The translations under genes and the position numbers were made by a program. A stretch of DNA of 64,000 nucleotides from Actinomycetes bacterium (GTDB lineage Bacteria > Actinomycetota > Acidimicrobiia > Acidimicrobiales > Palsa-688), in contig JAJYLA010000002.1 in NCBI GenBank assembly GCA_021788115.1, positions 20,476 to 84,475 of the forward strand, written 5' to 3'. Below, one piece after another: positions 862 to 4,935 of the stretch. The notes beneath the pieces are model-generated. The model did not search any database. It worked only from the letters and a program-made list of their open reading frames with translations, and was not told where the DNA came from. Position 1 is the stretch's first letter; each line of letters opens with the position of its first letter.

Positions 862-2103
862 CTAGTAGAAGGCGCCCTCCGCGTCGAGTTGGGCGAGCTC
901 CTCCTCGGTCATGCCGAGCAACCCGGCGAAGACCTGGTGGGTGTGCTCGCCGAGAAGGGGCGCCGGCGATTCGATGACGGCCGGGGTTGCGGAGAGCCTG
1001 TAGGGCGGACCCTCGGCGTGGTGATCACCGACCTCGGCGTGGTCGAGGGGGCGCCAGAAGTCGTGGGCGGCGAGCTGGGGGTCGCTGAAAAGGTCGGCCA
1101 TGTCGTTGACGGGCGCAGCGTGGACCACCTGCCCGCGAAGGGCGTCGACGACGGCGTCGCGGGACCTCGAGGCCGTCCAGGCGGCGAGGTGACCGTCGAG
1201 GTCCTCCTCGTTGGCCTTGCGGCCCGCCTGGGAGTCCAGGTCGGGCGTCGCCGCCCACGGGGGGTCCCCCAGGGCGGTTCGCAGCCTGCGCCACTCGTCG
1301 TCGTCGTGGACGCTGATGGCGACCCAGCGCTGCTCGCCCCGGCAGGGGTAGATGCCGTGGGGTGCGGCGGTGGGGTGCCGGTTGCCCGAGCGACCGGCGA
1401 TGCGTCCGTCGGCGAAGTAGCCGAGCAGGGCAGGGGCGACGAACAGAAGCCCGCTCTCGTACTGGGAGAGGTCGATGTGGCAGCCCGCCCCGGTCCGCCG
1501 CCGGCGGTCGAGGGCGGCGAGCACGGCGCAGGCGCCGTAGGCGGCCGCGATGTAGTCGATGTAGGGGCCGAACAGCAGTGAGGGGTCGCGGTCGGGCCAC
1601 CCGGTGACCTCGATGAACCCGCTGAGAGCGGTGAGCTGCGTCCCGAAGCCGGGCTGGCGGGCGCGCGGCCCTGTGGCACCCTGGTTGCAGGTGCTGAGCA
1701 TGACCAGCGACTCGTCGGCCGAGGCGAGGACGTCGTAGCCGAGTCCGAGGCGTTCCATCACCCCCGGGGTGAAGTTCTCGATCACCACGTCCGCCGAGGC
1801 GATCAGCCGCCGGGCGAGGCGGACTCCCGGCTCGGTCTTCAGGTTGAGGGTCACGCCCAGCTTGTTGTCGTTGGTGAAGGCGAACAGGGCGGACCTCTCG
1901 ATGCCGGGCAGGTTGTCCTTGAACGGCGGGTAGTTGGTACGGAACCCGTCGAGGGCCACCCGGCTCTCGATGCGTATCACCTCTGCCCCGTGGTCGGCGA
2001 GGTGCTTGCCCACGCACGGCCCGGCGGCGAAGCCGCCCAGCTCCACCACCCGGACTTCGCTGAGGGCCTGCACGGCGGCCGGGTCGTTCGGGGTGTCGCT
2101 CAT
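862..2103 (-). CDS. Family III (CaiB/BaiF) CoA-transferase, 413 aa; candidate second subunit of a heteromeric aryl-dicarboxylate CoA-transferase
   Basis: Only the C-terminal 413 aa of track ORF 862..3255 look like protein. The sequence starts MSDTPNDPAAVQALSEVRVVELGGFAAGPCVGKHLADHGAEVIRIE, the typical family III N-terminus. The ATG at 2103 overlaps the upstream stop (ATGA). Confidence 0.85.
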   Translation of the reverse strand: MSDTPNDPAAVQALSEVRVVELGGFAAGPCVGKHLADHGAEVIRIESRVALDGFRTNYPPFKDNLPGIERSALFAFTNDNKLGVTLNLKTEPGVRLARRLIASADVVIENFTPGVMERLGLGYDVLASADESLVMLSTCNQGATGPRARQPGFGTQLTALSGFIEVTGWPDRDPSLLFGPYIDYIAAAYGACAVLAALDRRRRTGAGCHIDLSQYESGLLFVAPALLGYFADGRIAGRSGNRHPTAAPHGIYPCRGEQRWVAISVHDDDEWRRLRTALGDPPWAATPDLDSQAGRKANEEDLDGHLAAWTASRSRDAVVDALRGQVVHAAPVNDMADLFSDPQLAAHDFWRPLDHAEVGDHHAEGPPYRLSATPAVIESPAPLLGEHTHQVFAGLLGMTEEELAQLDAEGAFY

Positions 2104-3305
2104 CGCTGGCCGGCGACCGGCTGGCCCAGTATCTCGGCGTCGTGCTCGCCGGGCAGCGGCGCCCGCCGTGCGAGGCGGGGAACCGTCGAGCCGAAGCGGG
2201 GAAAGCCGCTTGGATAGAGGAGGGGGCGCCCGAGCTCGGCAACGGTCACGTCCTGCCAGACCTCCCGGGCGTCGAGCTGGGGGTCCGAGGCGATGTCGTC
2301 GGCGCGTGAGACGGGGTATCCGAGGATGCGCCGGCGGGCGGCTTCCTCGGCGAACTCCCGGCGGGTCAGCGTCGCCACGAAGGGCGCGATCGCCGCCTCG
2401 AGGCGAGCGACCTCCACCGCGGTGAGGGCGGTGACGTCGAAGGTGTCCCAGTCCACGGCGAGCAGCCAGTCGGGCGCCATGCCCCGCTCGGCCATCCACG
2501 ACACCAGGTGGCGGTTCGACGTCCGCCCGGCCACCCCGCCGTAGACGGCGAAGCTGATGTGCCCGTCGCGGCACGCCCACACGTTGCGCATCGCCACCCC
2601 GGCGACGTTGCGGCCGACCAGGAACGGCCCGTGGCGCGCCGGGACCTCCCCGTTCAGGTCGTAGAAGTACGGGGCGTGCGCCAGCGCGGTCACCACGGCG
2701 GCCTGGGCCGACACGTCGACGTGCTGGCCCACCCCGCTGTTCTGCCGGTAGTGGTGGGCCACCAGGGTCCCGAGTGCCGCGTGCAGCGACGCCCAGGCGC
2801 CCGCCTGGGGCTCGGTGATCCGAACCGGGGGCCGGTCGGGGTCCCCCGCCAGCCACGCCGCGCCACCCGCAGCCATGATCTCGAGGTCCGAGGCGGGAGC
2901 CGCGGCGCCGGGGGTGCTCTGGCCGTAGGGGGTGATCGACGTGAGGATGATCCTGGGGTTCACGGCCCGCAGGCGCTCGAAGGAAAGCCCGAGCCGCCCC
3001 AGGTAGCCGGGGGTGAAGCTCTCCAGCACGAAGTCGGACGCTTCCACGAGCCGCAAGAAGCGGTCGCGGTCTGCGTCGTCTTCGAGGTCGAGCACCACGC
3101 TGCGCTTGCCGACGTTGAAGGCGAGCCACGCCAGGCTCACGGAACCGTCGCTGCCGGCGACCGAGGGCTCCGCGCTCCGCCCGGGGTCCCCGCCGGGGGG
3201 TTCGACCTTGATCACGTCCGCCCCCCAGTCGGCGAGGATCTTGCCGCAGAGCCACCCCAGCTCCCCGGTGAGGTCGAGAGCCCGGTACGGCAGCATCGTC
3301 TCCAT
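2100..3305 (-). CDS. Family III (CaiB/BaiF) CoA-transferase, about 401 aa; candidate first subunit
   Basis: Track ORF 2100..3356. The N-terminus METMLPYRALDLTGELGWLCGKILADWGADVIKVEPPGGDPGR is typical of the family. I placed the start at Met18 (3305), downstream of the UbiD stop at 3337. Met21 (3296) is also possible. Confidence 0.85.
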   Translation of the reverse strand: METMLPYRALDLTGELGWLCGKILADWGADVIKVEPPGGDPGRSAEPSVAGSDGSVSLAWLAFNVGKRSVVLDLEDDADRDRFLRLVEASDFVLESFTPGYLGRLGLSFERLRAVNPRIILTSITPYGQSTPGAAAPASDLEIMAAGGAAWLAGDPDRPPVRITEPQAGAWASLHAALGTLVAHHYRQNSGVGQHVDVSAQAAVVTALAHAPYFYDLNGEVPARHGPFLVGRNVAGVAMRNVWACRDGHISFAVYGGVAGRTSNRHLVSWMAERGMAPDWLLAVDWDTFDVTALTAVEVARLEAAIAPFVATLTRREFAEEAARRRILGYPVSRADDIASDPQLDAREVWQDVTVAELGRPLLYPSGFPRFGSTVPRLARRAPLPGEHDAEILGQPVAGQR

Positions 3306-3336
3306 CGGGTCTACCGCCGGCGTCCGCGCGAGCGGA

Positions 3337-4935
3337 TCATCTCCCGGTCCGGGCAAGGGACGTCACCCACCCGGTCATCAGCGCCCTGGCCGCGGCGAGC
3401 TGCGCCTCGGGGAACCAGTCCGAAGGCCGGACACGGTCGACGGGGTAGACGGGGCGCTGGAAGTCCGACTCGTAGCCGAACGGCATGGTGGCGTCGATGC
3501 CCATGCCGCCCTCGAAGCGGGTGTTCGATGCGGTCCACTCCCGCTCGCCGGCCGTCATGCGCTCCGACGGCTGGAAGGTCTGGCCGATCCCGCCGGGGAT
3601 GGGGTTCAAGATGTCGGTGTGGGGATTCACCCGCGTGGTCAGCGCCCAGACGATGTCGTCCATCGAGTACATGTCGATGTCGGTGTCCACGGCGATCGCC
3701 AGGCGCATCCCCTGGCTGCAGGAGAGCGCCGCCGCGAGGAAGTTCCGCTGCCAGCCCTCCTCGATCCTGTTGCGCTTCTTGACCTGGATGATGCACCCAC
3801 CCCAGTCGGTCATCGCGTAGGGGATGTGGACGTCCTGGACGATGCCCGGCTGCAGCCTCTCGCACAGCTCGTAGATGGCCGCTTCCCGCACGGTCGTGTC
3901 GATGTTGCTGTCGTCGGCCATGTGGACACCGAGCGCGTAGATCGCCGCCTTGGCCGGCCGCCGGCGCCTCGTGACCGCCGAGACGTGAAAGGTGGGGGCG
4001 CGGTAGGCCTTGCCCATGTACCCGGCCCACTCGGGGTGGAACGGCAGCCTCCCCTGAACGCCCGCCTTCTCCGCTTCTGCCGTCTCCCAGCGTTTGTCGC
4101 GCGGCTTGAGCACGCCTTCGAGCACGAGGTCGCAGTCGGCCACCGCGTAGGCGTCGACGGTCCTGGCCTTCACGAGCCGCATCGGGAAGCCCTGCACCGC
4201 CCCCGCCGCCCCCAGCTCGTCGGCCCCCCGCGGCAACACCACGTAGTCGAAGCCGCCGCCGGCGATGAGCGTGGCCGCCGGCGGCAGCCCGAAGCACATC
4301 GTCAAGGGGATCCCCTCGGGGTCGTCGTAGTGCTCGGTGATGACCTGCCACATGTGCGCCCCCGGGGCGGACTGGAACGTGCCGACGTCGCCCCAGCGGA
4401 AGTTCATGCGGTTGTAGCCGATGTGGCTCCCCCCGTGGAAGTAGTCGCCGACGACGACGCTGTTGCCGCTGCCGATCGTGCGCTCGGACTCGAGGGCGGT
4501 GTGGCGGATCGTGACGACGTGCTCGTTGACGTCGATGTCGCTGGTGATCACCTCTTCCTGGCACGGCGCCTCGTCGCCCGTGACGAACTCACACGGGACC
4601 GGGTGGGTCAGCGCATGGGCGAGCCTGCGAGTACGGTCCGTCGGCCCGTCCCAGCCGAACATGCGGTCGACGATGTCCATGTTGGTGAACAGGTTCGTGA
4701 CGACCCGCGCGTGGTCGTAGCCCTTCACGTTGCTGAACAGGATCGGCACGCTGCCGTCGAGATGCTTCTGGATCCCGGTCACTTCCAGGTCCCCGTCGAC
4801 GGGGACGTCGCTCTCCAGCAGCAACCCCTCCCGGCGCAACCAGTCGAGCGTCGCGCCGATCGAACGAAGGTCCTCGGGCGCAGCCGGGCGGCCGCTGATC
4901 TCGAACGCGGGGGGGCGCGTCAACTCGGTTGTCAT
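3337..4935 (-). CDS. UbiD-family (prFMN-dependent) decarboxylase, 532 aa; candidate aryl-carboxyl-CoA (phthaloyl-CoA-type) decarboxylase
   Basis: Track ORF 3337..4935 has normal amino-acid composition throughout. Its length and overall pattern fit the UbiD/3-octaprenyl-4-hydroxybenzoate carboxy-lyase family. It is the first gene of a three-gene unit with the two CoA-transferases. Confidence 0.8.
   Translation of the reverse strand: MTTELTRPPAFEISGRPAAPEDLRSIGATLDWLRREGLLLESDVPVDGDLEVTGIQKHLDGSVPILFSNVKGYDHARVVTNLFTNMDIVDRMFGWDGPTDRTRRLAHALTHPVPCEFVTGDEAPCQEEVITSDIDVNEHVVTIRHTALESERTIGSGNSVVVGDYFHGGSHIGYNRMNFRWGDVGTFQSAPGAHMWQVITEHYDDPEGIPLTMCFGLPPAATLIAGGGFDYVVLPRGADELGAAGAVQGFPMRLVKARTVDAYAVADCDLVLEGVLKPRDKRWETAEAEKAGVQGRLPFHPEWAGYMGKAYRAPTFHVSAVTRRRRPAKAAIYALGVHMADDSNIDTTVREAAIYELCERLQPGIVQDVHIPYAMTDWGGCIIQVKKRNRIEEGWQRNFLAAALSCSQGMRLAIAVDTDIDMYSMDDIVWALTTRVNPHTDILNPIPGGIGQTFQPSERMTAGEREWTASNTRFEGGMGIDATMPFGYESDFQRPVYPVDRVRPSDWFPEAQLAAARALMTGWVTSLARTGR

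Follow-up and report, generated by a model that had tools for sequence, protein, structure and literature searches.

We analyzed a stretch of 64,000 nucleotides from contig JAJYLA010000002.1 of the GenBank assembly GCA_021788115.1 (positions 20,476 to 84,475 of the forward strand; the whole stretch is hereafter called the window), which carries near its left edge a gene for a UbiD-family decarboxylase followed on the same strand by two genes for different family III CoA-transferases. The window has a GC content of 70.8%, and plain lists of open reading frames are full of false frames there; genes were called from GC content by codon position instead. The three genes, hereafter the triad, begin 861 bases from the left edge of the window, at which our view of the DNA ends. 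The triad and the signals read upstream of it are the following:

862..2103, minus strand: family III CoA-transferase subunit CT-B, 413 amino acids, CoA_transf_3 domain (PF02515)
2100..3305, minus strand: family III CoA-transferase subunit CT-A, 401 amino acids, CoA_transf_3 domain (PF02515)
3337..4935, minus strand: predicted UbiD-family phthaloyl-CoA decarboxylase (PCD) orthologue, 532 amino acids, Pfam domains UbiD_N, UbiD and UbiD_C
4938..4956, minus strand: purine-rich ribosome-binding stretch GAAGAGGAGGAGGAGGAAG, immediately 5' of the PCD ATG, read from the sequence
5023..5045, no strand assigned: perfect inverted repeat TATGGTC-N9-GACCATA with 7-bp arms, overlapping the -10 hexamer; candidate operator
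5040..5069, minus strand: sigma-70-like promoter candidate TTGACA-18 nt-TATGGT, about 105 nt upstream of the PCD start

A spacer of 31 nt separates the stop codon of the UbiD gene from the start of the CT-A gene, and the CT-A and CT-B genes overlap by the ATGA at 2100-2103. The two transferases share 27% identity and are distinct paralogues in tandem. This co-directional set of one UbiD-family gene and two different family III CoA-transferase genes, with the ATGA overlap, had been described in the initial annotation, and its coordinates and protein sizes held up. The ATG at 4935 was taken as the start of PCD because of the Shine-Dalgarno run in GAAGAGGAGGAGGAGGAAG and the 532 amino acid length of the closest listed relative (P0001). 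The promoter candidate, a consensus match only, agrees with the consensus at 10 of 12 positions, where shuffling the region gives an expectation of 0.2 sites of this quality. The inverted repeat may serve as an operator, and no second copy of it beyond chance was seen in the window; a terminator scan gave one intragenic match only, at chance level. Altogether, the operon signals of the triad comprise the 31-nt and -4-nt junctions, a strong ribosome-binding site and the promoter-like site. The GC content at third codon positions (GC3) lies between 0.93 and 0.95 in all three genes, indicating that they are real genes of this GC-rich window, and the overall GC content of the triad (0.711) is close to that of the window (0.708). 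Taken together, both values show that the triad is at home in its host genome, and it is fully adapted to the host codon usage.

We then compared the UbiD protein with characterized members of its family. Among solved structures, the best match was the phthaloyl-CoA decarboxylase of Thauera (8pmk/8oz5; 830 bits, E = 4.5e-249), and the next UbiD subfamily in this search, the protocatechuate decarboxylase AroY, scored 140 bits. By direct count, the window protein is 66.6% identical to the Thauera enzyme over 509 ungapped residues, from residue 24 to the end, and it is 68% identical to the PCD of Aromatoleum aromaticum EbN1. The PF20695, PF01977 and PF20696 domains are all above their gathering cut-offs, and the same three-domain UbiD architecture is found in the Thauera chlorobenzoica enzyme (8pmk, 8oz5, 8p02), which has 527 amino acids compared with 532 in the window protein. 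The two differ in their hosts, a betaproteobacterium for the former and an actinobacterium for the latter, and the window gene has no linked ubiX. In an alignment of 84 clade members, including the Thauera and EbN1 enzymes, the window protein retains 150 of the 151 invariant columns and 74 of the 78 columns conserved at 95% or more; the sole invariant column that is changed has Asp in place of Pro, at position 74. These comparisons place the UbiD protein in the phthaloyl-CoA decarboxylase clade. It had been proposed beforehand to be an aryl-carboxyl-CoA decarboxylase, with placement among the phenolic-acid or ubiquinone-pathway enzymes as the contrary outcome; the check for the latter was run and left the proposal standing.

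NCBIfam holds no model dedicated to PCD or to the subunits of the phthalate CoA-transferase, and the models of other UbiD-family enzymes scored far below their cut-offs (score/cut-off: VdcC, 160/650; UbiD, 46/788; phenylphosphate carboxylase, 51/565). The free-acid UbiD decarboxylases (VdcC, AroY, UbiD, the menaquinone/MqnL type and phenylphosphate carboxylase) were considered as candidates and rejected on their low scores.

The two CoA-transferases correspond to the pair that follows PCD in A. aromaticum EbN1. CT-A is 47% identical to the first of these (307 bits) and CT-B is 51% identical to the second (384 bits), while the cross-comparisons give 28%, so that the orthology with the EbN1 pair is one to one. 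The best solved matches of CT-A and CT-B are chains A (205 bits) and B (240 bits), respectively, of the benzylsuccinate CoA-transferase 9fn0, a sister family that acts on a different substrate and scores lower than the EbN1 pair. In family III CoA-transferases, the catalytic nucleophile is an Asp residue, as known from formyl-CoA transferase. In the alignment, Asp183 of CT-B shares its column with the Asp of 4ed9, 10uh and chain B of 9fn0, and this column holds Gly169 in CT-A and Tyr in chain A of 9fn0, so that the benzylsuccinate enzyme has the same asymmetry as the window pair, with the catalytic Asp in one chain only. Among the related loci described below, all 60 CT-B orthologues have Asp in this column, compared with none of the 64 CT-A orthologues. 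CT-A is probably the non-catalytic partner of CT-B, and the two would form a heteromer with one catalytic and one structural type of subunit. The formyl-CoA, oxalate, carnitine, glutarate and mesaconate CoA-transferase types were rejected, as all their NCBIfam scores were far below cut-off. Clustering of the pair with formyl-CoA, carnitine or bile-acid enzymes, named beforehand as a contrary outcome, is countered by these low scores and by the identities to the PCD-linked pair of EbN1.

At some distance from the triad, the window encodes enzymes that could act on its product:

20095..21168, minus strand: Oah/BamA-like crotonase (6-oxocyclohex-1-ene-1-carbonyl-CoA hydrolase-like), best NCBIfam model TIGR03200 (218 bits, cut-off 464)
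21392..25559, plus strand: class I ATP-dependent aryl-CoA reductase of four subunits, Pfam HGD-D (two) and BcrAD_BadFG (two)
38690..41273, minus strand: three-subunit 2-oxoacid:ferredoxin oxidoreductase, Pfam POR, TPP_enzyme_C and POR_N/PFOR_II

The reductase lies 16.4 kb from the UbiD start, and the Oah-like gene is transcribed divergently from it. Among solved structures, the reductase is closest to the 3-methylbenzoyl-CoA reductase MbdONQP (9g87), with 530 bits to MbdN and 477 bits to MbdO, and as in that enzyme MbdN- and MbdO-like subunits are followed by two BcrA/D-type ATPase subunits. Similarity to the bzd-type BzdNO is much lower (104 and 91 bits), and the enzyme is also far from the 2-hydroxyacyl-CoA dehydratases. 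All Bcr/Bzd equivalog cut-offs of NCBIfam were missed (score/cut-off for Bcr: C, 256/421; B, 212/486; A, 194/578; D, 136/313), and for this reason we file it as an MbdONQP-like aryl-CoA reductase and not as a canonical benzoyl-CoA reductase. The initial annotation had placed a benzoyl-CoA reductase 16 kb away; the distance and the class I aryl-CoA reductase stand, and the narrower name does not. By sequence, the window enzyme represents an actinobacterial lineage of the class I aryl-CoA reductase; a literature search on MbdO and actinobacterial benzoyl-CoA reductases returned nothing usable. The three-subunit oxidoreductase could supply the reductase with reduced ferredoxin.

The strongest sign that triad and reductase act together comes from four related loci in actinobacterial metagenome-assembled genomes (MAGs; L003, L005, L009 and L012), where reductase orthologues with 60-75% identity lie 2.5 kb downstream of the triad, preceded by Oah orthologues with 81-82% identity. 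In three of these loci and one more (L003, L005, L009 and L010), the opposite strand upstream of PCD also encodes another UbiD protein, a distant paralogue with 24-25% identity to PCD that is transcribed divergently. Many other loci hold a comparable gene, and the window is without one.

A wider search showed that the PCD clade is broad. More than 1000 clusters of the protein collection are related to PCD at E < 1e-50; the best 120 of them are 72-87% identical to it, and their named sources are MAGs of Thermoleophilia, Anaerolineae, Dormibacterota, Acidobacteriota and Chloroflexota. Members of the clade carry the automated names "4-hydroxy-3-polyprenylbenzoate decarboxylase" or "gallate decarboxylase subunit C". 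When one genome per species was scanned, at least 586 PCD places were confirmed, mostly in MAGs of soil and subsurface phyla, and the best 80 of these, all from MAGs and spanning several phyla, were used to compare loci. In most of the 80, PCD is flanked by CT-A and CT-B orthologues, in three gene orders. The pairwise identity matrices of PCD, CT-A and CT-B are correlated with each other (rho = 0.64-0.76, Mantel p = 0.001; 55 loci), with mean identities across these loci of 0.74, 0.52 and 0.54, respectively. The triad genes travel together, with PCD merely the slowest-changing of the three. The closest listed relative is a 215-kb Thermoleophilia MAG contig that carries the same triad with 87/73/73% identity (PCD/CT-A/CT-B), followed by a GntR/FCD regulator gene and surrounded by housekeeping genes; no ubiX or reductase was found within 10 kb of that triad. 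Recent horizontal transfer was also considered and is unsupported: the triad has the GC content of the window, there are no insertion sequence (IS) elements, and the rate of divergence differs among the three genes. A recent wholesale transfer is unlikely, since uniformly high identities would be expected from it.

The cluster on plasmid 2 of A. aromaticum EbN1 (NC_006824, 66351-71015) encodes UbiX, PCD, a 395 amino acid transferase and a 406 amino acid transferase. It shares with the window the order of decarboxylase, Asp-less transferase and Asp-bearing transferase, a 4-bp overlap between the transferase genes, and 68/47/51% identity. The settings differ: in EbN1, ubiX immediately precedes the decarboxylase gene, the transporter is of the TAXI-TRAP type, and the cluster lies on a conjugative plasmid with IS elements on its flanks. 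The window lacks ubiX and IS elements, the transporter component beside its triad is a lipoprotein binding protein of the ABC type, and the GC content is that of the host. The same plasmid (68783-82367; L081/L082) holds two ubiX-pcd pairs whose UbiX proteins are 99-100% identical to each other; it also has an idi gene, a UbiD gene that differs from both pcd copies, and several IS elements. Just one of the two pcd copies in EbN1 is followed by a transferase pair.

Proteobacterial loci have ubiX immediately before the decarboxylase gene, and a 2026 review reports ubiX in all known clusters. That no UbiX is encoded in the window, as had been stated before, was confirmed for these 64 kb in two ways: a tblastn search with EbN1 UbiX gave a best E-value of 0.6, and a profile of 38 decarboxylase-linked UbiX proteins run against the six frames gave a best E-value of 1.4. 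The flanks of six actinobacterial loci likewise lack ubiX. Given its presence in all clusters covered by the review, the unlinked ubiX is a real difference in organization. The prenylated flavin mononucleotide (prFMN) cofactor would then depend on a ubiX encoded outside the window.

A succinyl-CoA:phthalate CoA-transferase acting together with PCD is the established route of o-phthalate degradation in denitrifiers. We consider it likely, from the sequence evidence set out above, that the three genes of the window form one operon that would convert o-phthalate to benzoyl-CoA without oxygen, and that the nearby reductase would then dearomatize the product; the anaerobic module proposed at the outset is thus supported by the PCD clade, the orthology with EbN1 and the conserved adjacency. 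From the homology, orthology, catalytic-residue pattern, conserved synteny and co-evolution of the triad, we infer its substrates, the succinyl-CoA donor, the heteromeric assembly and the coupling to the reductase. In the proposed pathway, the CT-A/CT-B heteromer would move CoA from succinyl-CoA to o-phthalate, with Asp183 of CT-B as the catalytic residue, and the prFMN-dependent UbiD-family PCD would decarboxylate the unstable phthaloyl-CoA at once to benzoyl-CoA. The class I MbdONQP-like reductase would consume this product by dearomatizing it, after which the neighboring Oah-like hydrolase would open the ring. A UbiD-type decarboxylation of phthaloyl-CoA is likewise found in the sulfate reducer Desulfosarcina cetonica, but this organism activates phthalate by an ATP-dependent CoA ligase, whereas the window has the transferase pair and no ligase beside the decarboxylase.

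The region around the triad holds a transporter component and further genes of aromatic metabolism. The former is the first feature of the window:

3..671, minus strand: solute-binding lipoprotein of an ABC transporter (Peripla_BP_6, Pfam), cut by the window edge

This protein has a lipobox (LAAC) and a Ser/Thr/Gly/Pro linker, and homologues with 42-47% identity lie near PCD in four other loci (L037, L043, L053 and L065); it is a candidate uptake component. On the other side of the triad, the ORF at 5111-6088 (plus strand), divergent from the PCD operon, encodes an Amidohydro_2 protein whose best solved matches, at about 75 bits, are the non-oxidative decarboxylases ACMSD, gamma-resorcylate decarboxylase and LigW; homologues with 53-60% identity lie beside PCD in L027, L043, L050 and L065. 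Next to it, the gene at 6094-7077 (minus strand) encodes a 327 amino acid protein without any Pfam or NCBIfam match that is a homologue of the 4,5-dihydroxyphthalate decarboxylase 9jp7_A (270 bits, E = 3e-79). The latter acts in aerobic phthalate degradation, yet its homologue here lies 1.2 kb from the anaerobic-type PCD, and homologues with 44-48% identity adjoin PCD in L035, L037 (two copies) and L075. Together with PCD, these two genes bring three kinds of aromatic decarboxylase homologue within 4 kb. They are followed at 7166-8374 (plus strand) by a FAD monooxygenase gene closest to 3-hydroxybenzoate 6-monooxygenase (402 bits, cut-off 459); no gentisate dioxygenase was seen in the window.

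Further into the window, a three-subunit molybdenum hydroxylase set similar to HcrCAB, the 4-hydroxybenzoyl-CoA reductase, is encoded at 14588-18472 on the plus strand (bits/cut-off: alpha, 891/994; gamma, 187/258; beta, 248/405), and its neighbors are genes for IclR and PaaX regulators and for a PaaK-like ligase. Other aromatic genes encode a benzoate-CoA ligase family protein, two PaaK-like ligases, a BadH-like dehydrogenase and acyl-CoA dehydrogenases. The region 38690-43949 (minus strand) holds two 2-oxoacid:ferredoxin oxidoreductase sets, the three-subunit one listed above and a two-subunit indolepyruvate-type one with ferredoxin domains, and adjoining them are a third family III CoA-transferase gene (37462-38697) with the catalytic Asp present and beta-oxidation genes. 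The gene at 55472-57205 (minus strand) encodes a fusion of a major-facilitator transporter with a universal stress protein domain at the C-terminus.

With regard to the host, a non-catabolic S9 peptidase of the window has its closest named relatives in Streptosporangiales (61-67% identity), and the best assignment is an uncultured member of the Actinomycetota. The Gram-positive background suspected in the initial annotation is supported at the level of this phylum by the relatives of the S9 peptidase, the lipoprotein linker and the related loci.

Several observations weigh against the assignment of the triad to o-phthalate. The transferases are just about 50% identical to the EbN1 pair, a level at which substrate specificity is not guaranteed, and the equation of that pair with the assayed enzyme rests on gene position. 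The conservation check on PCD concerns clade-invariant columns and not structure-derived residues in contact with phthaloyl-CoA. In addition, there is no ubiX within 64 kb, whereas all described clusters have one; the nearest solved reductase is a 3-methylbenzoyl-CoA reductase and not a canonical benzoyl-CoA reductase; and an oxygen-dependent monooxygenase homologue (7166-8374) neighbors the triad in an otherwise anaerobic-type island.

Alternatively, the triad might perform the same chemistry on another ortho-dicarboxylated aromatic acid, such as hydroxy- or methyl-phthalates or benzene tricarboxylates of natural origin, the resulting substituted benzoyl-CoA being handled by the MbdONQP-like reductase or by the enzyme resembling 4-hydroxybenzoyl-CoA reductase. 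The affinity of the reductase to 3-methylbenzoyl-CoA reductase and the presence of the HcrCAB-like set are consistent with such a substrate. So are the 4,5-dihydroxyphthalate decarboxylase, ACMSD/LigW-type and 3-hydroxybenzoate 6-monooxygenase-like genes immediately upstream, the first two of which have homologues recurring beside PCD in other phyla, as well as the divergence of the transferases (47-51% identity to the EbN1 pair) and the frequency of the clade in MAGs of phyla with no earlier link to phthalate degradation. However, PCD keeps all but one of the 151 residues that are invariant across a clade including the Thauera and EbN1 enzymes, there is no sequence sign of an altered active site, and the described phthalate CoA-transferases are reportedly highly specific for o-phthalate. 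On balance, we regard a substituted phthalate as an unlikely substrate.

It is still less probable, and in our view a slim chance, that the triad is not used for anaerobic growth, being either silent for want of prFMN or part of a hybrid pathway that feeds an oxygen-dependent benzoyl-CoA route encoded elsewhere. This would fit the lack of ubiX in the window, in the flanks of the six actinobacterial loci and in those of the Thermoleophilia contig, where the triad has housekeeping genes as neighbors and no reductase is found within 10 kb, and it would also fit the oxygen-dependent genes and a hemerythrin gene nearby in the window. On the other hand, the genes are intact, with GC3 values of 0.93-0.95 and all but one clade-invariant residue of PCD kept, which argues for continued selection; moreover, four actinobacterial loci physically link the triad to Oah and reductase genes, and the window itself holds a broad set of anaerobic aromatic genes. 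Finally, an ordinary free-acid UbiD enzyme (acting on phenolic acids, protocatechuate or in ubiquinone/menaquinone synthesis) beside unrelated formyl-CoA, oxalate, carnitine or glutarate transferases is suggested by the automated names polyprenylbenzoate or gallate decarboxylase and, where a dedicated NCBIfam model is lacking, by best named matches to VdcC and to succinate-glutarate/mesaconate CoA-transferases, but it is hardly credible given that all those models score far below cut-off, that the solved PCD scores six times as high as AroY, and that the three genes are conserved in adjacency and co-evolve.

Preferring the o-phthalate assignment, we find that the module of the window belongs to the known pathway family by every sequence criterion tested, and it appears to extend this pathway to a new bacterial group. 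In the literature searched, the phthaloyl-CoA pathway is described only from denitrifying Betaproteobacteria, gammaproteobacterial bins and sulfate-reducing Deltaproteobacteria, and a search of a Gordonia genome for homologues of the pathway is reported to have found none. The module is new in the phylum of its host, in its unlinked ubiX, in its candidate uptake component of the ABC and not the TRAP type, and in its chromosomal, host-adapted setting as opposed to an IS-flanked plasmid. The window shows the module complete, intact and adapted to an actinobacterial host, with many genes for anaerobic aromatic degradation next to it. Phthalate is a breakdown product of plasticizers, and since the triad genes carry generic or wrong annotations and have no NCBIfam model, surveys of plasticizer degradation will miss them. 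A single locus of this kind will not surprise specialists; it is the breadth of the unannotated clade that merits follow-up.

The breadth and high conservation of the clade also bear on whether this "xenobiotic" pathway is really young. More tentatively, and with the balance of probability somewhat on the other side, the triad may be an old, self-contained three-gene unit, widespread in uncultured Actinomycetota, Chloroflexota, Acidobacteriota and Dormibacterota and serving the breakdown of natural phthalate-like benzene polycarboxylic acids, rather than a late adaptation of Proteobacteria to a synthetic compound. It is consistent with this possibility that the triad evolves as a unit, that ubiX is often unlinked, and that the triad is sometimes flanked by other non-oxidative aromatic decarboxylases. 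If this were the case, the triad would feed an MbdONQP-type ring reductase in the actinobacterium of the window.

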